A stretch of 64,000 nucleotides of DNA from Eggerthellaceae bacterium (GCA_040774885.1 JAXGTO010000002.1:39328-103327); one strand, 5' to 3'; numbered from the stretch's first letter, positions 4,475-33,970 are shown. Translations and numbers: made by a program. Notes: generated by a model not told the origin, from the sequence alone.

Positions 4475-5743
4475 CTATTCCCCATCTGCTGCTTCGGCAG
4501 CATCGACAGCCGCATCTTCTTCGTCTTCGTAGAAGACGTCGCGGTCTTTGACGCGATCAGCTGCGGGAATGGGGACGGGCTTTGCCTCTGGTTCGGCGAA
4601 AGTCTTATCGGAAAACAGCGCGTGGATGTTCTCATAGCGCACAGTGCCGGTGCCGGTTTCTATGCGACCCACTTCAGAAACGGTCTCCCCCGCTTCGATG
4701 AGCGCCGATTTGACCGAAGCCGCCTGAGCGGCGTCGACGATGAGCACCATGCCGAGCCCCATGTTGAAGGTCTTGAGGGCTTCGGCTTCGGAAAGCCGTG
4801 CGGCGCGGCAAACGAACTCGATGATGGGCGCCATTTCCCACGTGCCGACCTCCACCACGGCATCCGCCGTGGAAGGCAGGGCGCGGTCGAGGTTCTCGGT
4901 GATGCCGCCGCCGGTGATGTGCGCCAAGGCGTGAACGGCTCCCGGATAAGCGTCGAGAACGGACCTGACGGACTTCACGTAGATGCGAGTGGGGTCGAGC
5001 AGGGCGTCTTGCACGCTGCGACCGCCCAATTCAGGACGCTCGAGGCGCGCCTCGTAATGGGTCTTACCCTCGATGCACACCTTGCGCGCAAGGCTGTATC
5101 CGTTGGAATGCAGGCCGCTCGAAGCCAAGCCCAGCAGCACGTCGCCTTCACCCACCTGTTCGGGGTCGAGCATCTTGGGACGATCGACCACGCCCACGCT
5201 GAAACCGGACAAATCGTACTCGTCGGGATCCATGATGCCCGGATGCTCGGCCATTTCGCCGCCCACCAACGCACAACCCGCCTGGCGGCAGCCGTCGGCA
5301 ATACCCGAAACGATTTCCGAAACGGCATCGCTGTCGAGCTTGCCGATGGCGATGTAGTCAAGGAAGAACAACGGCTCGGCACCTGTGGCCAAGATGTCGT
5401 TCACGCACATGGCCACCAGGTCGATTCCGACGGTGTCGTGTTTGCCGGCCAGCTTGGCCAACTGCAGCTTGGTGCCCACGCCGTCGGTACCGCTCACCAG
5501 CAGCGGGTCTTCCATGTCTTTGGCGGCAGCGATGCTGAACAACCCGCCGAATCCGCCGATGTCGCCCACCACTTCTTTGCGATAGGTGGAATGCACGCTA
5601 TCTTTGATGGCCGAAACAGCACGCGCTCCCTCTGCTGTGTCGACACCGGCTTGAGCATAGGTCACGGAATCGGAGCCAACCCAACTGGGCATGGCAGGGG
5701 CTTCTTCGGATGACGCAGCGCTTACGGTGATGCGATCGGACAT
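4475..5743 (-). CDS. purM: Phosphoribosylformylglycinamidine cyclo-ligase (AIR synthetase) with acidic C-terminal tail
   Basis: GGFGGLF, SGTDGVGTK and GGEMAE motifs, with an AAGGAG RBS before the ATG. About 60 extra C-terminal residues are rich in D/E/A. Confidence 0.95.
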   Translation of the reverse strand: MSDRITVSAASSEEAPAMPSWVGSDSVTYAQAGVDTAEGARAVSAIKDSVHSTYRKEVVGDIGGFGGLFSIAAAKDMEDPLLVSGTDGVGTKLQLAKLAGKHDTVGIDLVAMCVNDILATGAEPLFFLDYIAIGKLDSDAVSEIVSGIADGCRQAGCALVGGEMAEHPGIMDPDEYDLSGFSVGVVDRPKMLDPEQVGEGDVLLGLASSGLHSNGYSLARKVCIEGKTHYEARLERPELGGRSVQDALLDPTRIYVKSVRSVLDAYPGAVHALAHITGGGITENLDRALPSTADAVVEVGTWEMAPIIEFVCRAARLSEAEALKTFNMGLGMVLIVDAAQAASVKSALIEAGETVSEVGRIETGTGTVRYENIHALFSDKTFAEPEAKPVPIPAADRVKDRDVFYEDEEDAAVDAAEAADGE

Positions 5744-22739: not shown

Positions 22740-25169
22740 TCAGTGCTCGCCGGGCATCATGCGATGGGCGTCGAACACGCCCTCGATACCCTTGAGCTTG
22801 CCGATGATCTTGTCGATGGCAGAGACTTCGCTTACTTGAAACAAGAAGCGCATCTCCACCATGTTGTCGCGATGCGAGGTGGTGCTGGAAGAAAGCACGT
22901 TTGCTCCGGCTTCGGCCAGCACGATGGCCACATCGCGCAGAAGATTCATTCGGTCGAGCGCCTCGATGAGAATCTCGACCTTGTAAGAAATGTCGTTGTT
23001 GGGAGCGTTTTCCCATCGCACGTCTATGATGCGCTCGGGATGCGCCATCAAGCTGGCGGCATTGGGGCAGTCGGCCCGATGAACCGAAACGCCCCTGCCC
23101 CGCGTCACGAAACCGACGATGTCATCTCCGGGTACGGGATTGCAGCAGCGAGACAGGCGGACGAGAACGTCATCGATGCCTTTGACCACCACGCCGTTGC
23201 TCGCATGGACTTCACGTTTCTTCGGTTCCTTCACCGAGGTGATCATCGGAGGCATCATGCCGGTCATCATGGTGGCCGACTTCGATGTCGACGCTTCTTC
23301 ATGTTCGCCCGATCCACCATCGAGTATCTTGATCAAACGGTTTGCGACATGCTGGGTGCTTTCCTTGTTCGTTCCGATGTTCACCAGCATGTCGTCTGAA
23401 TCGCGGTATCCCATCTGCTCGGCCGCCTGCTTCATGGCACGCATGCCGCGAGCATTCGCGATCCCCAACCCGTGCTTGCGCATCTCGGTCGAAAGCTTCT
23501 CGCGTCCGGTTTCCAGATCATCGCCGCGCGTCACCCTGCTGAAATACGAACGGATCTTGCTGCGCGCGCTGGGGGTCTTCACCATTTTGAGCCAGTCGCG
23601 ACTGGGGCCGGCGCTTTTCTGGGTGAGGATATCGACGCGATCGCCCACCTGAAGCTCGTAGGACAAGGGAACGATGGAGCCATTGACCTTGGCGCCGACG
23701 CAATGGTTGCCGACCTCGGTATGGATGGCATAGGCGAAATCGACCGGCGTGGATCCGGAACGCAAGCTCATGACCTCGCCTTTGGGCGTGAACACGAACA
23801 CTTCAGAAGGGGCAAGATCGACTTTGAGCGACTTGAGAAACTCGCGCGAATCCTGCGTTTCGTCCTGCCAGTCGACCATTTGGCGAAGCCAGGCCAGCTG
23901 CTGGTCGAAGCTGGCATCGCCTTTAGCGCCCTTTTCCTTGTAGCGCCAATGGGCGGCCACGCCGTATTCGCTCATGCGGTGCATTTCCTCGGTTCGGATC
24001 TGAACTTCAAGCGGGCGTCCGGCCGGCCCGATCACCGTGGTGTGCAGGCTTTGGTACATGTTGAATTTCGGCATGGCGATATAGTCTTTGAAACGCCCGG
24101 GCATCGGGTGCCACAGGCTATGGACGGCGCCCAATGCCGAGTAGCAATCCTTCACCGAGTCCACGATGATGCGAACGGCGATGAGGTCGTATATCTCGGA
24201 GAACCCCTTGCCGCGATTGGTCATCTTCTGGTAAATGGAATACAGATGCTTGGGACGTCCCATGATCTGCGCATCGATGCCCAGCTTGTCCATTTCGCCA
24301 TGGAGGATGTCGATGGTCTTTTCCAGATACTCCTCGCGCTCGCCGCGACTCTCGGCCACCATGCGCGATACCTGCTTGAACTTGGCGGGCTCCAGATAGA
24401 AAAACGAGAGATCCTCGAGTTCCCATTTGATGGAGCTGATGCCCAGACGATGCGCAATGGGCGCGTATATCTCAAGGGTCTCGCGCGCCTTGAAGATGCG
24501 GCGGTCTTCCTTGAGCGCCGAAAGCGTGCGCATGTTGTGCAGGCGGTCGGCAAGCTTGATCACGATGACGCGGATGTCCTTGCTCATAGCGACGAACATC
24601 TTGCGAATGGTCTGCGCCTGTTCGTCGGAAAGGCTCTCCACCTCGATGCGCGTGATTTTGGTGACGCCGTCGACCAGTTGGGCGACGCTGTCGTTGAACG
24701 TTTCGCGCACCTGATCGAGCGTGACGCTCGAATCTTCAACCGTATCGTGCAACAGGGCGGCGGTAAGCGTTTCGGCATCCATCTTCAAATCCGCCAGGAT
24801 GAGCGCGACCTCAACCGGATGGGCGATGAACGGCTCCCCGCTTTTGCGGCATTGGCCTTCATGGGCATCGCGGGCGAACAAGAACGCCCGCTCGATCATG
24901 TCCTCGTCTTCATCGCTGAGATAGGCGGATGTGACCCTTTGCAGTTCGGCGAACCGCTCTTCGGGCGTGGCACGTGCCACCACCTTGCCGGGGTCAGCCG
25001 TGGCAGCGGGCGTGGTAAAGCTCATCTCGGCAGCATGCGGCCGGCCGATGAGCTCATCGGATCCATCGCTGAAACGGCTCGATCCACCGATCGTCTCGGC
25101 AGCCTGACCCAGCATCTCATCATCGGCCGTTGCGGGCCGCGCCGTGCTTTCGTCGGTCTTGTCGCTCAT
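22740..25169 (-). CDS. relA: Bifunctional (p)ppGpp synthetase/hydrolase
   Basis: HD domain (HPVEVA...HDTVED), synthetase domain (YQSLHTTV, EVQIRT), TGS and ACT domains. The ATG overlaps the stop of the upstream gene (ATGA), with an AAGGAGAGGGGG RBS. Confidence 0.95.
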   Translation of the reverse strand: MSDKTDESTARPATADDEMLGQAAETIGGSSRFSDGSDELIGRPHAAEMSFTTPAATADPGKVVARATPEERFAELQRVTSAYLSDEDEDMIERAFLFARDAHEGQCRKSGEPFIAHPVEVALILADLKMDAETLTAALLHDTVEDSSVTLDQVRETFNDSVAQLVDGVTKITRIEVESLSDEQAQTIRKMFVAMSKDIRVIVIKLADRLHNMRTLSALKEDRRIFKARETLEIYAPIAHRLGISSIKWELEDLSFFYLEPAKFKQVSRMVAESRGEREEYLEKTIDILHGEMDKLGIDAQIMGRPKHLYSIYQKMTNRGKGFSEIYDLIAVRIIVDSVKDCYSALGAVHSLWHPMPGRFKDYIAMPKFNMYQSLHTTVIGPAGRPLEVQIRTEEMHRMSEYGVAAHWRYKEKGAKGDASFDQQLAWLRQMVDWQDETQDSREFLKSLKVDLAPSEVFVFTPKGEVMSLRSGSTPVDFAYAIHTEVGNHCVGAKVNGSIVPLSYELQVGDRVDILTQKSAGPSRDWLKMVKTPSARSKIRSYFSRVTRGDDLETGREKLSTEMRKHGLGIANARGMRAMKQAAEQMGYRDSDDMLVNIGTNKESTQHVANRLIKILDGGSGEHEEASTSKSATMMTGMMPPMITSVKEPKKREVHASNGVVVKGIDDVLVRLSRCCNPVPGDDIVGFVTRGRGVSVHRADCPNAASLMAHPERIIDVRWENAPNNDISYKVEILIEALDRMNLLRDVAIVLAEAGANVLSSSTTSHRDNMVEMRFLFQVSEVSAIDKIIGKLKGIEGVFDAHRMMPGEH

Positions 25170-28100
25170 CGATCCCCCTCTCCTTGCGCCGGCGGGCATT
25201 CGTCGGTGGGAAGGATGGGCCGGGAAACACGGCGGCGCAATTCCTCGGCATCGCCGGAAAGGACCCATTGCCTGAATGCGCGGAATATCTCGATCTCGTC
25301 TTGTCCTTCGCGATAGCGCACGCTGTCGGTAAGTTCGACTTTGGGAGGATCGTCGTTGACGTGGATGGTGCGCGCAGCACCGTCTTCACCTGGAGCATTC
25401 GAACGCGTCTCGATGAGCCCCAACTCACGGAACACCGACACCGCGCATGCGGCGCTGGCGGGCTTGATCGGATGTTTGGGCTCAGCCTCGGAACACGACC
25501 GGGCCAAATCGGCGTTGGAAATGCACAGAGGCTCATTGGATCCGCTGCGCTGCAAATCACGTAGGCGGCGGTATACCTGGGCCATCGCATCATGGCTGGG
25601 AGTGGCGTCTTGCAAAATGCCCTCGTTGATGCGGGCATCGTCGGCCCCGAACAGCAGATGCACCTGCGCGGGCAAACCATCCCTTCCCACGCGGCCGCTC
25701 ATCTGGTTGAACTCAACCTCGTTGAATGGCAAATGATAGAGGACCACATGGCGGATGTTGGGGATGTCCACCCCCTCGCCGAAGGCGGACGTGGCAACCA
25801 GCACGCGCAGATCGTCTGCACGGAACAGTTCTTCGATGCGCGTGCGCTCCACACGGGCCAGCCCCGCATTGTAAAAGCCCACCATCGAAGCCATTTGGGG
25901 CACCTGTTTGCGAAGAGCACGCGCCAAAGACACCGATTGCTGACGGGAGTTCACGTAGATGACGGTTTTTTCACCCGTCGCAACCAAATTGGCGAGATAG
26001 GTTTCACGGCGGCGCGAATTGCGTTGGTCGTCGATGCTCAAATTGGGACGAGAGGTATCGTCGCAGATGCGCTCGACGATTCCGAGAGCCTCGCAGACGT
26101 CATCGGCCACTTCTGCAGAAGCCGTGGCGGTAAGGGCGAGGACCTTCCGGGGAGCCAGCCGCTCCACCGCTTGGGAAATGCGCGCATACGCCGTGCGGTT
26201 GCCGGCCTTGGCCAGCCCGATATGGTGGGCCTCATCCACCACCATGAAATCGATGTTGCCCGATTGGGCGAATTCATCGGCATGGAAGCTCAGGAACTCA
26301 GGCGTGGTGAGCACGATGTCGACCCCACCTTCGGCGATGCGCGCGAAAACACTGCGTCGCTGGTCAGGGGTCGATTCGCCCGTGAGCACTTCGCTCACGA
26401 CGCCGAATGGCGAAAGGGCGCGGTCCAGATGATAGGCTTGATCGGCGATGAGGGCGCGCAGCGGATAGACGAACAGGCTGACGCCGCCACCCGCGAGGGC
26501 ACGGCACGCCGCATGCACTTGGAAAGTGAGCGACTTGCCCCGTCCCGTGGCCATGACCGCCAACACCGAACGATCGGAACCGAGTGCATCGAGAACACGG
26601 CGCTGGGAATCGAACAGGGTCCCCTCTTCGCCGATGCATGCGGCAATGACGGCATCCTGCAATCCAGCAGGGTCTTCTGCAGCGCGTTTTTCCCAGCACG
26701 CGCGGTTTTTCTCGCACTCACGTTCGTCGCGCGCGATATCGGAAGCGCACTCAGAGCAGTCGGCGCACAACTCGGCGTCGCTGGCCGCATACAGATCGGA
26801 AACGAAGTTCACGTTGTCCGGCTGCAAGCACGCCTCCAAAGCGGCGCAAGGCGTGGCGGGAGCAAGCTGGCTGAGCATGGCCTTGACCGAACGACGTCCG
26901 CGATATTCATCTATCTGCACTTCGAATGCAGCATCGACCACGCTATCGCATTGCATGAGCGATGCAATGTCGGAACAATGGAACATGATGCCCGCAACCT
27001 GGGCGCGGCCATCGGTCAGCTGGCAGGAGAGGTGGTTTTTATCTGCCCCCACGGCCCGGCAGCGACCCAAGATGACATTGCGCGCCAAGAAGCGCGGAGG
27101 ACGATTCTCCTGGCCGAAGGGTGCCATCTGCTGCAACGCCTCGACGTTGGACATCGTGAGCTCTTCCAAACGAACGCAGGCATCGATTTCAACACGCGGA
27201 TGGAAACACTCTTCCGGCAAACCGTCCATGTAAGAGCACAGACGCTCGGTGAATTCGGGCAGACGGTCAGCAGGCAAGGTGACGCCTACGGCGGCCTCGT
27301 GTCCGCCGAAGCGGGTCAGCAGATCAGCGCAGCTTTCAACGGCCCGGAAAAGATTCACGTTGCCAACGCTGCGTCCGCTGCCACGCGCCTCGCCGTTCTC
27401 GTCGATAGTGAACAAAAGCGCAGGAACGCCGTACGTGCGCACCAGTCGGCTGGCCACGATGCCTTTGACGCCTTCGTGCCACCCTTCGCCCGACACCACC
27501 AATGCGCGCTGGCCGTGATAGGCTTCTTCGGCCTGCAAGCTGGCGATCTCAGCGAGTTCGGCCTCGATGGCGCGCCGTTGGCAATTGACTTCTTCCAAAC
27601 GGGCGGCCAGGCGACAGGCTTCGTCATAGTCGTCGCACATCAGCAGATCGAGCGCCAATTGCGCATCGCCCATGCGTCCCGCTGCATTCAGGCGAGGAAT
27701 GAGGGAAAAGCTCAGCGATGAGGCCTCGACGGGTTTGTCGGCTGCTCCGGCCTGTTGCAGCAGGGCTGCCAGACAGGGACGCGGGCTCTCGTTCATGCGC
27801 GCCACGCCATCTGCCACCAGCGCGCGATTGCCCGCCCGCATGGGCATGAGGTCGGCCACGGTGCCCAGCGTGGCCAAGTCGGTGTACTCGCGCCACAGGT
27901 GCGGCTTGCCGAATCGAGCGCCCAACGCCTGAACCACCTTGCATGCCACGCCCACGCCCGCAAGGATGGAACTGGGAGATTTGCTATCGAGCTTGGGGTC
28001 GCATACCGGCACGGATTCAGGCACCAGATCGGCCGGCTCGTGATGGTCGGTGATGACGACTTCGACCCCATGGTGCTGCAATGTCTTGACTTCGTTTTTG

Positions 28101-28543
28101 CATGCGATGCCGCAGTCGACGGTCACCAGCACTTCGGGCTCGGTTTCCATCACACGCGGGATGGCCGCTTCGGTGATGCCGTAGCCTTCGTCAGTGCGAC
28201 GCGGGATGAACGGCTCGGCCTTGGCGCCCAGCGCCCGCAACGCGCGGGTAAGCACCGTGGTCGAGGATATGCCGTCCAAGTCGAAATCGCCGAACACCGT
28301 GATACGGAGATCATCGCGCACGGCGCGCTCAAGCGCATCGACGGCATCGGACAGTCCTGCCACCTGATAGGGGTCGAGCCAATCGCGCTCGATGCTGGGA
28401 TGCAGGAACGCACGTGCCCGAGAGGGATCGTCGTGTCCACGCGCCACCAGCACGGCGGCCATGAAATGCGGGATATCCAACTCGCGCTGAAGCACGGCTA
28501 CAGCTTGGGCATCGGCCGCAAGGATGTTGAAACGGGTTGCCAT
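25166..28543 (-). CDS. recJ: RecJ single-strand exonuclease fused to a RecQ-like SF2 helicase
   Basis: aa 1-560 carry the DHH motifs (DFDLDG, VTVDCG, ITDHH) and DHHA1 (GGHEAAVG). aa 640-965 carry helicase motifs I MATGRGKSL, II VVDEAHH, III LTATA and VI QMSGRVGRDG. It is a single uninterrupted frame. Confidence 0.9.
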   Translation of the reverse strand: MATRFNILAADAQAVAVLQRELDIPHFMAAVLVARGHDDPSRARAFLHPSIERDWLDPYQVAGLSDAVDALERAVRDDLRITVFGDFDLDGISSTTVLTRALRALGAKAEPFIPRRTDEGYGITEAAIPRVMETEPEVLVTVDCGIACKNEVKTLQHHGVEVVITDHHEPADLVPESVPVCDPKLDSKSPSSILAGVGVACKVVQALGARFGKPHLWREYTDLATLGTVADLMPMRAGNRALVADGVARMNESPRPCLAALLQQAGAADKPVEASSLSFSLIPRLNAAGRMGDAQLALDLLMCDDYDEACRLAARLEEVNCQRRAIEAELAEIASLQAEEAYHGQRALVVSGEGWHEGVKGIVASRLVRTYGVPALLFTIDENGEARGSGRSVGNVNLFRAVESCADLLTRFGGHEAAVGVTLPADRLPEFTERLCSYMDGLPEECFHPRVEIDACVRLEELTMSNVEALQQMAPFGQENRPPRFLARNVILGRCRAVGADKNHLSCQLTDGRAQVAGIMFHCSDIASLMQCDSVVDAAFEVQIDEYRGRRSVKAMLSQLAPATPCAALEACLQPDNVNFVSDLYAASDAELCADCSECASDIARDERECEKNRACWEKRAAEDPAGLQDAVIAACIGEEGTLFDSQRRVLDALGSDRSVLAVMATGRGKSLTFQVHAACRALAGGGVSLFVYPLRALIADQAYHLDRALSPFGVVSEVLTGESTPDQRRSVFARIAEGGVDIVLTTPEFLSFHADEFAQSGNIDFMVVDEAHHIGLAKAGNRTAYARISQAVERLAPRKVLALTATASAEVADDVCEALGIVERICDDTSRPNLSIDDQRNSRRRETYLANLVATGEKTVIYVNSRQQSVSLARALRKQVPQMASMVGFYNAGLARVERTRIEELFRADDLRVLVATSAFGEGVDIPNIRHVVLYHLPFNEVEFNQMSGRVGRDGLPAQVHLLFGADDARINEGILQDATPSHDAMAQVYRRLRDLQRSGSNEPLCISNADLARSCSEAEPKHPIKPASAACAVSVFRELGLIETRSNAPGEDGAARTIHVNDDPPKVELTDSVRYREGQDEIEIFRAFRQWVLSGDAEELRRRVSRPILPTDECPPAQGEGDR

Positions 28544-31819: not shown

Positions 31820-32719
31820 TCAGTTCTCCGATAATGCGGCGCACAAAGCGTCGAGCAAGGTAATGGCGAAATGCTGGGCGCTGCGGCCTTCTTTGGCATC
31901 CTGCCATTGTTCCCCGGGCAGCGCGACGGCGATGCGCGGAACGCCGCCTTGCACGGCACTGAGCGCGCTGCGCAAGCGCAAATGCAGCGTCTCTTCTTCT
32001 TCAAACGCCACTTGAGGAACGCCGGGAGCGGGTTCGTCTCCGGCCAAAACGATATGGACCAAGAGCATGTCTTCATCGGGCTTGACCAATAAAGAGTCGG
32101 CACTCACGATGCGCGAAGCGGGATTGGTGGCCAAAGCCAAGTTGGACATGCGAGCGGCCACCGAACGGGTGAACGCAGAGGTGCCGAAAAGGCACAAGGC
32201 GTTGTCTTCGAGCACATCGGCAGCGCGGGCGAATCCCAAATAGGCCGAAGAAGCAGGCCCTGGCTTGCCCACCCAGGAATGATGCAGGTTGTTGATTTCC
32301 CCGAACGTGAGCGCCCCGGCGATTCCGTCGGCAGGCAGGCCCATGTTCATCTGGAATTTGCGCAGCGCCGATTCGGTATAGGCGCCGAAGATGCTGTCAT
32401 CGGTTCCGCAAGAAAAGCCCAACGCGCCCAAGGCGGTCTGAAGCTCCAAAACGTCATTGCCATGGAAATAGGGCATGCGAAGGTACAACGTGCGCCCGCC
32501 CATCTTGAAGCTGGCATCCAGCAAGGCCGACCATTCGCGTTCGGTTACCTGGGAGCTTTCGGGAAGGCCCCTGTCGGCGCAGAAAGCCGCGAGCGCATGC
32601 TCGGTGGCATCGTCGAACGTGGAAGTGACTTGGGAGTCATCGAGGAATCCCAAGGCAGCCAACTTCTGTTGGACGTCTTCAACGGCAGCGCCGGTGTCAT
32701 GTTTCTGAATCATTTGCAT
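31820..32719 (-). CDS. Protein with two peptidoglycan-binding (PG_binding_1-like) repeats and an uncharacterised C-terminal domain
   Basis: Two repeats (GAAVEDVQQKLAALGF...TEHALAAFCADRGL and VLELQTALGALGF...TESALRKFQMNMGL). No obvious signal peptide. The start is approximate. Confidence 0.65.
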   Translation of the reverse strand: MQMIQKHDTGAAVEDVQQKLAALGFLDDSQVTSTFDDATEHALAAFCADRGLPESSQVTEREWSALLDASFKMGGRTLYLRMPYFHGNDVLELQTALGALGFSCGTDDSIFGAYTESALRKFQMNMGLPADGIAGALTFGEINNLHHSWVGKPGPASSAYLGFARAADVLEDNALCLFGTSAFTRSVAARMSNLALATNPASRIVSADSLLVKPDEDMLLVHIVLAGDEPAPGVPQVAFEEEETLHLRLRSALSAVQGGVPRIAVALPGEQWQDAKEGRSAQHFAITLLDALCAALSEN

Positions 32720-32778
32720 ACGGGCATTGTATCGCAGGGCTGCGGCTGCCGTCACCGGTTCACAAAACCGTTATGCAC

Positions 32779-33855
32779 CTATTTCAGGCGGTTGACGAAC
32801 CAATCGGCCATGCTCACCAAAAGATTGCGTGCCGTACTGGGAGACACCATGTCTACCAGACGGTTCTTGGCGATGCTGGTAAGGTTTTCGGCATAGTTGC
32901 GCGCGTACTCGATGCTGCCGCTGCGCTCCATGATATCCACCGCTTCAGCCAAGACGGCCGGATCTTTTTCCTTGGAAGAGAGGATTTCGATGAGCCGGTC
33001 TTTGTCAGGCGAATTCTGCAGGGCATGCACCACCACCAACGTGCGCTTGCCTTCGGTGATGTCGGTGCGGAAATCCTTCTTGGTGGACTCCTCCGAACCG
33101 ATGAGGTTGAGCAGATCGTCTTGGATCTGGAAGGCAAGGCCCGTGTCCAAGCCGTAGTTGCGCAGCGCTTCGATTTCGGCCTCGGTGCCGCCGCCGATGA
33201 TGGCGCCGATGGCAAGGGGCACGGCGCCGGAATAATGCGCAGTCTTGTGAGTGGCCATTACCAGGTAGTCTTCGGGAGTGATGTTGTAGCGGCCGTCACG
33301 CGCCCATCCGATATCGAGTGCTTGGCCCTCGATGGTGCGACGCGTCATGTCGATGAGCTCGGTCACCACACGCACCTTGGTGGCATCATCGAGGCTTTCG
33401 TCCTTCATGACGGTGCCGTTGACCATCGACAAGGCCAGGTCACCCGCATTGATGGCAAGGCCCAGGCCTTCGGTAAGGTGCATGCAGGGCTCGCCGCGAC
33501 GCAGCTCGGCTTCGTCGGCGATGTCGTCATGGATAAGCGCTGCGGTGTGGAAATGCTCCACAGCCGCCGCTGCGCTGGTGGCCTTTACGATGTCGCCGCC
33601 CACGGCCATGCAGGCCGCAAAGCAGATGAGGGGGCGATGGCGCTTGCCGCCATTGCGACTGTAGGCATACAGGGGATCGTAGAGATATTTGTCCATATCG
33701 GGATGGGTGCCATGGGGAATGTAACTGTTGACGAGGTCGCCCACCTTGTCGGCATACAGGGAAAGATATTCCTCGAACGAAGCGGGAGTCACTTCTTCGG
33801 CGTCCATGATCTCGCGGATGTTCTCGATGTGCTCGTTATGCTCGGTCTCGGTCAC
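32779..33855 (-). CDS. Polyprenyl diphosphate synthase (trans-IPPS)
   Basis: FARM motif ALIHDDIAD and SARM motif FQIQDDLLN. The start must lie 3' of the tRNA. The GTG at 33855 has a purine-rich stretch upstream, and the next ATG is at 33807. Confidence 0.88.
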   Translation of the reverse strand: MTETEHNEHIENIREIMDAEEVTPASFEEYLSLYADKVGDLVNSYIPHGTHPDMDKYLYDPLYAYSRNGGKRHRPLICFAACMAVGGDIVKATSAAAAVEHFHTAALIHDDIADEAELRRGEPCMHLTEGLGLAINAGDLALSMVNGTVMKDESLDDATKVRVVTELIDMTRRTIEGQALDIGWARDGRYNITPEDYLVMATHKTAHYSGAVPLAIGAIIGGGTEAEIEALRNYGLDTGLAFQIQDDLLNLIGSEESTKKDFRTDITEGKRTLVVVHALQNSPDKDRLIEILSSKEKDPAVLAEAVDIMERSGSIEYARNYAENLTSIAKNRLVDMVSPSTARNLLVSMADWFVNRLK

Positions 33856-33885
33856 GATAATCGGCTCTCTGTCCTCTTTGCTGTT

Positions 33886-33970
33886 TGGTAGGAGCGGTGG
33901 GACTCGAACCCACATTCCCGAAGGAGGCGGATTTTAAGTCCGCTGCGTCTGCCAGTTCCGCCACGCTCCC
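33886..33970 (-). tRNA. tRNA-Leu (anticodon TAA), CCA encoded
   Basis: Folds by hand: acceptor GGGAGCG/CGCTCCT, anticodon stem GCGGA/TCCGC with loop CTTAAAA, a long variable arm, and T arm GTGGG-TTCGAGT-CCCAC, followed by ACCA. Confidence 0.95.

Follow-up and report, generated by a model that had tools for sequence, protein, structure and literature searches.

In textbook accounts, bacteria resect 5' ends and process gaps with two proteins, RecQ and RecJ, and the locus described here raises the question of whether both activities can reside in one polypeptide encoded by a resident recJ gene. The locus lies in a 64,000-nucleotide stretch of DNA from an Eggerthellaceae bacterium (GCA_040774885.1 JAXGTO010000002.1:39328-103327), referred to below, in its full length, as the window. 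An earlier examination of this DNA from its sequence alone (the sequence-only reading) had proposed that a single uninterrupted frame encodes a 1125-amino acid (aa) fusion of a RecJ exonuclease and a RecQ-like helicase. The frame is indeed intact: positions 25166..28543, on the minus strand, comprise an ATG start, 1125 codons with no internal stop and a TGA stop. The extent of the gene is supported by this single open reading frame (ORF), by full-length homologues and by an AlphaFold2 model of the whole 1125-aa chain built on a 49-sequence alignment (mean predicted local distance difference test score, pLDDT, 89; predicted template modelling score, pTM, 0.72). The gene is the recJ orthologue of the organism joined to an active-looking RecQ-like motor of helicase superfamily 2 (SF2), its product being a likely single-chain helicase-nuclease for 5'-strand resection and for gap widening at stalled forks.

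The N-terminal half includes a RecJ exonuclease core (aa 25-558; 26870..28471, minus strand) delimited by TIGR00644, Pfam and PDB matches. The NCBIfam recJ equivalog model TIGR00644 spans aa 25-558 with 478 bits and, since its cutoff of 396.9 is passed, the gene is a recJ orthologue by NCBI's criterion. Within this core the Pfam domains DHH (aa 80-228, 74.5 bits), DHHA1 (aa 346-439, 53.8 bits) and RecJ_OB (PF17768; aa 453-557, 90.4 bits) all exceed their gathering scores. The RecJ motifs quoted in the sequence-only reading are present at residues 86-91 (DFDLDG), 140-145 (VTVDCG), 164-168 (ITDHH) and 413-420 (GGHEAAVG). Residues D86, D88, D90, D143, D166, H167, H168, D231 and H415 are invariant in the 49-sequence alignment, in which identity falls to 28%, as is the complete GGH of DHHA1 (G413-G414-H415). 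Sequence matches of the RecJ half in the PDB are 8y30 (1e-89), 5f54 and 2zxo; the last of these, the Thermus thermophilus RecJ, also matches the model structurally (root-mean-square deviation 2.9, 572 columns). The RecJ half is a DHH/DHHA1/OB exonuclease, predicted from its sequence to act 5'-3' on single-stranded DNA (ssDNA).

The C-terminal half carries the two lobes of an SF2 helicase, and a helicase core is detected in aa 640-965, as had been anticipated. Lobe 1 (aa 646-813; 26105..26608, minus strand) matches Pfam DEAD with 81.8 bits and lobe 2 (aa 850-956; 25676..25996, minus strand) matches Helicase_C with 77.8 bits, both above their gathering scores. Lobe 1 contains motif 0 (Q647), Walker A (GRGKS, K670), Ia (PLRALIADQ), Ib (TTPEF), II (DEAH, 770-773) and III (TAT); lobe 2 contains motifs IV (YVNSR), V (TSAFGEG) and VI (QMSGRVGRDG). 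Each of the helicase motifs singled out from the sequence was recovered at its place (MATGRGKSL, 664-672; VVDEAHH, 768-774; LTATA, 804-808; VATSAFGEGVDIPNIRHVV, 916-934; QMSGRVGRDGLPA, 947-959). In an alignment of ten family members that are 31-54% identical to the query (alignment A1), motifs 0, I, Ia, Ib, II, III, IV, V and VI are all invariant. Escherichia coli RecQ (1oyw) aligns to this half at an E-value of 8e-37, and RECQ4, WRN, RECQL5, RECQ1 and BLM are further sequence matches. A Foldseek search with the full-length model returns RecJ structures first, followed by the RecQ, WRN and RECQL5 cores (E 1e-19 to 1e-21). Within the window, the fused ORF is the sole match to the helicase hidden Markov model (HMM).

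The single frame is widely conserved. A homologue search of 5.8 billion proteins, clustered at 90% identity, gave more than 120 full-length clusters of 1108-1218 aa, 62-71% identical to the query and with the same Pfam set. Where named, they come from Raoultibacter, which includes the nearest relative (67-71% identity), Gordonibacter, Slackia, Enteroscipio, Paraeggerthella and other Eggerthellaceae, and their database name is always "single-stranded-DNA-specific exonuclease RecJ". Contigs were also scanned, with each GTDB species represented by a single genome, and a relative of the helicase part is encoded in at least 591 stretches. Most of the 80 top-ranking loci, which were retained for analysis, bear Coriobacteriia titles; among them are Olsenella porci and Parafannyhessea umbonata of the Coriobacteriales. 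DHH, GGH, GxGK[ST] and DExH occur together in one open frame in 74 of the 80; of the other six, a contig end truncates five and one is frame-broken. The break in the latter (L065, Cryptobacterium sp. CAG:338) is at about locus position 5229, within the RecJ part and not at the domain junction, and may reflect either an error of sequencing or a pseudogene. Some eleven of these 80 loci (L021, L022, L045, L046, L047, L059, L067, L069, L072, L073 and L080) lie in metagenome-assembled genomes titled with unrelated taxa (Methanomethylophilaceae, Anaerovoracaceae, Bacteroidaceae, Prevotella, Oscillibacter, Alloprevotella, Subdoligranulum, Acutalibacteraceae, Agathobacter and Acidaminococcaceae). Their helicase part is 48-62% identical to that of Eggerthellaceae, and they are probably mis-binned Coriobacteriia contigs. 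One candidate for a natural split gene, P0195, seemed to encode a stand-alone helicase; this protein, the sole short match examined, proved to be a fragment at a contig edge, its frame remaining open up to the very first base.

The genomic context is that of a housekeeping gene. The order is glmU-prs-pth-[fusion]-relA, with a gene for a metallo-β-lactamase (MBL)-fold hydrolase after relA, and the guanine-cytosine (GC) content of the fused gene is even along its length (0.61-0.64). relA lies on the same strand within 1.5 kb downstream in 69 of the 72 related loci with enough flanking DNA; pth is upstream in merely 13 of 61. Together with the TIGR00644 result, this synteny bears out the view that the gene is the resident recJ in a conserved recJ-relA neighbourhood.

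The extent to which the motor deserves the name RecQ is less straightforward, and several observations weigh against its reading as a RecQ-type resection helicase. The NCBIfam recQ_fam model (TIGR00614) gives 183.6 bits, below its cutoff of 219.8, and the recQ equivalog (TIGR01389), whose cutoff is 640.2, gives 200.5 bits, its match being confined to positions 17-362 of a 591-position profile. No conserved cysteine follows motif VI in alignments A1 and A3, which leaves no tetracysteine zinc subdomain: the E. coli RecQ alignment stops at residue 344, ahead of the zinc domain, and the equivalent segment is a cysteine-free helical hairpin in the AlphaFold2 tail model. HRDC has no Pfam match even at E 10, and only some 45 residues follow the winged helix; RQC likewise has no Pfam match even at E 10. 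The aromatic-rich loop, which in E. coli RecQ couples DNA binding to ATP hydrolysis, reads DEAHHIGLAKAGNRTAY after motif II in the query against DEAHCISQWGHDFRPEY in E. coli (IGLAKAGNRTAY against ISQWGHDFRPEY in E. coli RecQ as also aligned). Equivalents of the E. coli W154 and F158 are absent and the arginine (R159) alone is retained; the family consensus at this point in alignment A1 is DEAHHxGxxKAGxRPAY. Among the PADLOC defence-helicase models, DpdF and PsyrT score 203 and 193 bits on the core, close to the RecQ scores. The domain is kept by many relatives in which ATPase motifs have been lost, so that this region can serve a non-motor role. Finally, the literature search found no biochemical or genetic characterisation of any family member. 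The tetracysteine zinc domain is regarded as a signature of the extended RecQ family (PMC3378886). The term "RecQ-type" used in the sequence-only reading holds for the ATPase core, with all its SF2 motifs, but not for the family cutoff, the Cys4 zinc site, the HRDC domain or the W and F of the aromatic-rich loop. The protein, RecQ-like in its ATPase core only and not a canonical RecQ, is accurately described as having a "RecQ-like SF2 core", in keeping with the title of the sequence-only reading.

The C-terminal tail (aa 962-1110; 25214..25660, minus strand) is modelled by AlphaFold2 as a hairpin of two helices, devoid of zinc cysteines, followed by a winged helix and then a long helix. The model of the last 160 aa has a pLDDT of 90.7, and the final ~15 residues alone are poorly predicted. 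In the Foldseek search with the full model, the alignments to RecQ catalytic cores, in which the zinc and winged-helix subdomains are included, extend over 513-534 columns, and the tail therefore occupies the RQC position. Searched alone, it matches generic MarR/PadR winged helices only (E about 1e-2), and its profile finds nothing significant in the PDB; it is consequently not assignable to RQC. The tail is homologous to the end of long RecJ proteins. The last ~160 aa had been left unassigned in the sequence-only reading; this stands inasmuch as RQC and HRDC give no match, but the predicted hairpin and winged helix and the homology to long RecJ now give the region an identity. Close to its end is a near-invariant R-P-I-L-P motif (aa 1108-1112; 25208..25222, minus strand; consensus xP[ILV]x[PQ]), of which P1109 and P1112 are at least 90% conserved in the 49-sequence alignment.

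Nuclease and motor are joined by a helical linker (aa 563-640; 26624..26857, minus strand), defined by AlphaFold2 helices and by the position of HIRAN in relatives. No HIRAN match is found in the query and the linker has no Pfam match. Five helices are predicted (567-572, 575-586, 589-593, 600-623 and 625-637) at pLDDT 74-91, which suggests that these ~80 aa form a structured connector rather than a floppy tether. The segment had been described as a Cys-rich linker, and its seven cysteines (566, 572, 593, 596, 599, 610 and 616, with CADCSEC at 593-599) are present. Close relatives (62-71% identical) keep only C566, C572 and usually C593; C596, C599, C610 and C616 are not conserved, and distant relatives retain none of the seven. 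The cysteines are not conserved, the segment is predicted to be helical and Pfam is blank; on these grounds, both a conserved Fe-S or zinc module and a zinc domain relocated from RecQ were rejected. As a separate observation, C-x2-C-x2-C followed by C610 and C616 (aa 593-616; 26696-26767, minus strand) resembles a metal-cluster motif that is unique to this genome, the closest relatives retaining one or two of these cysteines. A species-specific metal site at C593-x2-C596-x2-C599 with C610 and C616 is possible.

RecJ digests ssDNA in the 5'->3' direction, and RecQ-family motors travel 3'->5' and unwind. Cooperation of RecQ and RecJ in RecFOR-dependent resection is established for E. coli and B. 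subtilis (PMC3378886; Morimatsu & Kowalczykowski 2014, cited in PMC10470531). We infer the polarity of the fused motor, the coupling of unwinding to degradation and the pathway along the following lines. The motor would track 3'->5' along one strand and part the duplex, the C-terminal winged helix acting as a DNA-binding element or pin. The 5' end of the displaced strand would be offered to the RecJ hole made by DHH, DHHA1 and the OB fold, and RecJ would then digest this strand 5'->3'. The expected product is a 3' single-stranded tail, or a widened gap, for RecFOR and RecA. A 3'->5' motor and a 5'->3' nuclease on complementary strands advance in the same direction, which makes the covalent link geometrically coherent, and this link would guarantee hand-off of the displaced 5' strand.

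The main rival to this helicase-nuclease reading is that the SF2 module is a translocase or remodeller which pulls RecJ along SSB-coated ssDNA, strips SSB or RecA, or remodels forks, making the protein a motorised gap exonuclease. Such a role would agree with the missing zinc domain, HRDC domain and aromatic residues of the aromatic-rich loop, with the resemblance of HIRAN-bearing relatives to HLTF-type fork remodellers, and with the Foldseek result for the tail, which yields generic winged helices and no RecQ-specific wedge. On the other hand, the core is closest to genuine RecQ-family helicases, the winged helix stands where RecQ has its strand-separating winged helix, with RecQ cores aligning over the 513-534 columns mentioned above, and RqlH, itself a divergent RecQ-like protein, unwinds DNA (PMC3378886). 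On balance this role seems rather doubtful, and a duplex-unwinding resection motor is preferred.

Comparison with known systems helps to place the helicase-nuclease. E. coli RecQ and RecJ, and B. subtilis RecQ/RecS and RecJ, comprise the same modules, a DHH/DHHA1/OB exonuclease and a RecQ-type SF2 core, on two proteins, whereas here they form one polypeptide with a structured 80-aa linker; relative to E. coli RecQ, the fused helicase also lacks the features listed above and stays below the NCBIfam family cutoff. WRN, whose core is among the best structural matches, is likewise a natural single-chain SF2 helicase-exonuclease, in which a RecQ helicase is combined with a DnaQ-type 3'-5' exonuclease. 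Another SF2-exonuclease fusion is the S. aureus/B. subtilis DinG with its N-terminal DEDD exonuclease (PMC12345164, PMC12525004). In contrast to both WRN and DinG, the nuclease of the fused protein belongs to the DHH family, is predicted from sequence to be 5'-3' and ssDNA-specific, and is an N-terminal, housekeeping RecJ orthologue. Dna2, RecBCD, AddAB and AdnAB would share the proposed logic, a motor and a nuclease coupled to yield a 3' tail; theirs are SF1 motors with PD-(D/E)XK nucleases, mostly in multi-subunit enzymes, whereas the fused protein combines SF2 and DHH in a single chain. M. smegmatis RqlH, PsyrT and DpdF are also divergent bacterial RecQ-like cores with non-canonical C-terminal regions. 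RqlH, however, retains a tetracysteine zinc domain together with a ComF-like C-domain (PMC3378886), DpdF and PsyrT are found in defence or toxin-antitoxin loci, and none of the three is fused to RecJ.

The architecture extends well beyond the Eggerthellaceae. In a HMMER search over 1.84 billion representatives of 50%-identity clusters (its proteins are given P-numbers), many representatives of 1050-1310 aa match both halves, with identity down to 28-31%; distant members mostly carry no cluster name. The best 150 were classed by an HMM of the helicase-plus-tail region: 62 have RecJ and the whole region with motifs I, II and VI intact, 19 have RecJ and the whole region with at least one of these motifs lost, 25 have RecJ with the second RecA-like lobe and tail only, and the remainder are fragments or RecJ only. 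Intact members occur in Coriobacteriia/Coriobacteriales and in several Bacillota lineages, indicating an architecture common to two phyla.

In many intact members a HIRAN domain is inserted between RecJ_OB and the helicase; it scores above the Pfam cutoff in P0122, P0153, P0241, L070 and L074. HIRAN-bearing genes include those of Olsenella and Parafannyhessea, and other named bearers include Acetohalobium arabaticum, Sporohalobacter salinus, Selenihalanaerobacter shriftii, Phosphitispora, Candidatus Frackibacter and Peptococcaceae; decayed forms are found in Natroniella, Fuchsiella, Halobacteroides and Pelosinus. The HIRAN domain of HLTF binds 3'-OH DNA ends, and in these relatives it would help to place the machine at a primer terminus or DNA end. 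In a sample that is not phylogenetically independent, the HIRAN signature is present in 110 of 276 intact, 4 of 36 degenerate and none of 32 half-helicase members, and the RPIxP motif in 238, 4 and none, respectively. P0161 (1848 aa) shows a triplicated RecJ architecture, with three tandem RecJ-like cores (aa 6-498, 597-1105 and 1129-1433) and, at its end, an OB-like segment and a weak lobe-2/tail match.

Shorter members of the family connect the fused protein to the RecJ of model organisms. Of 39 long RecJ proteins of 820-915 aa, 36 match the helicase HMM over positions ~207-480 at values below 1e-3 (independent E-values down to 4e-64, database size 1.8e9). With hhalign, the extensions of long RecJ align to the fused-helicase profile with a probability of 100% (E 3e-53, 271 columns), and their own profile (A4) finds the RecA-like lobe 2 of eIF4A, RecQ and WRN in the PDB. 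By these sequence comparisons, the C-terminal extensions of 820-915-aa RecJ are unambiguously homologous to lobe 2 and the tail of the fused helicase.

The same may apply to the "RecJ C-terminal domain" PF10141 (ssDNA-exonuc_C), which S. aureus RecJ carries according to precomputed annotation. S. aureus RecJ (8Y30, 757 aa), a representative of long Firmicute RecJ, is the best Foldseek match of the query (E 4e-48, 1119 columns, spanning the whole query); unlike the fused protein, it is devoid of lobe 1 and of ATPase motifs. PF10141 is detected above its gathering cutoff of 26.4 in P0171, an intact RecJ-HIRAN-helicase (31.2 bits, aa 994-1169, overlapping Helicase_C), and in P0397, a half-helicase form (36.2 bits, aa 633-852). 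On the query tail it reaches 15.1 bits (E 0.019), below that cutoff. In a Pfam scan of 14 A4 members, PF10141 was found in just two and Helicase_C in just two. Aligned by hhalign, S. aureus RecJ (P0405) is colinear and motif-consistent with A4 and A1, at a weak level (probability 22-29%, P about 1e-3), and 8y30 is not among the 60 matches displayed for the A4 profile against the PDB. The link to the S. aureus C-terminal domain (CTD) rests on the PF10141 matches to P0171 and P0397 and on the 1119-column Foldseek alignment. PF10141 is probably an eroded remnant of helicase lobe 2 and the winged helix.

A lone lobe 2 with motifs IV-VI presupposes a complete helicase, so that fusion first and decay later is the simplest order of change; this order is supported but not proven. 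The distribution of forms likewise supports an old architecture that decayed repeatedly to RecJ plus a half-helicase. A broader scenario can be put forward tentatively, with slightly more doubt than conviction: the ancestral RecJ of much of Bacillota and Actinomycetota may have been a single-chain RecJ-HIRAN-RecQ-like helicase-winged-helix resection machine, of which the Coriobacteriia protein would be a surviving active form minus HIRAN and the PF10141 of S. aureus and B. subtilis RecJ the stump. In that case, recognition of the 3' end, unwinding and degradation of the 5' strand would be coupled within the single polypeptide of intact members, with RPIxP taking part.

These decayed forms also provide a case for another explanation, in which the helicase half lacks motor function and serves RecJ as a structural or regulatory appendage, for instance a docking platform for SSB or other partners; such is its apparent role in the many relatives with decayed motifs. 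A motif I, II or VI has been lost in 19 of the 150 representatives and 25 keep lobe 2 and tail only, and the S. aureus RecJ CTD (PF10141) is itself such a non-ATPase domain. For the query, the explanation is nonetheless improbable. Walker A and DExH are present in it and in all 74 complete Coriobacteriia frames, and helicase motif residues invariant across A1, at 31-54% identity, are not expected of a relic; moreover, RPIxP and HIRAN accompany intact motifs and disappear upon motif decay. A purely structural role for the query protein is accordingly unlikely, and the resection motor again appears preferable.

A single frame produced by an assembly or frameshift artefact, or by recent insertion of a DpdF/PsyrT-like defence gene that merely looks fused, would find some encouragement in the PADLOC scores of 193-203 bits on the core and in the broken frame of L065, but is so improbable as to be effectively refuted, given the recurrence of this frame across hundreds of protein clusters and 74 of the 80 independent species genomes, the uniform GC content, the position of the L065 break away from the domain junction, the conserved relA synteny and neighbours (glmU, prs, pth, relA and the MBL-fold hydrolase) that lead to rejection of a defence-system reading, the similarity to DpdF and PsyrT being confined to the helicase core.

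The component parts and the RecQ-RecJ partnership are already known; what is new is their conserved, uncharacterised covalent arrangement and its evolutionary link to the RecJ of model organisms. In the full-text literature searched, no description was found of a RecJ-helicase fusion, of a HIRAN-RecJ fusion or of the origin of PF10141; Gao et al. 2026 may cover the CTD fold. A natural fusion represents independent evolutionary evidence that both activities act as one unit, and this one is conserved across a class of human-gut Actinomycetota and several Bacillota lineages. It would offer a compact, genetically simple system for studying the coupling of unwinding to 5'-3' degradation, a bacterial counterpart of BLM/Sgs1-Dna2 or WRN, and it bears on DNA repair in gut bacteria of the Eggerthella group. 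Annotation as "RecJ" hides a helicase in hundreds of species, and the decay series suggests a testable origin for the RecJ C-terminal domain of S. aureus and B. subtilis.

The downstream relA is the conserved operon partner of the fused gene. The overlap of its stop with the relA start, remarked on in the sequence-only reading, is an ATGA at 25166..25169 (minus strand), read directly from the DNA: the stop TGA (25168-25166) overlaps the relA ATG (25169-25167), and GGAGAGGGGG precedes the overlap. The fused gene ends GAT CGA TGA, and the A of CGA with the TG of the stop forms the relA ATG, hence ATGA. From this ATG the relA/spoT ORF encodes 809 aa (22740..25169, minus strand) and is identified as RelA/SpoT by TIGR00691 (827.6 bits; cutoff 499). 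The longest ORF would begin at 25268, inside the fused gene, but the start coupled through ATGA, at 25169, is more plausible. The TIGR00691 alignment begins at aa 95, which leaves some 94 N-terminal residues of RelA (aa 1-94; 24887-25169, minus strand) in front of it.

Two further features were noted elsewhere in the window, both on the minus strand. A tRNA gene at 33889-33970 (56.7 bits), the single Rfam match of the whole window, is located immediately upstream of the gene (32779-33915) for a polyprenyl diphosphate synthase. A 311-aa ORF at 31820-32755, adjoining glmU, has a weak and partial match over aa 98-174 (67.7 bits against a cutoff of 236.5) to SleB, a spore cortex-lytic enzyme.

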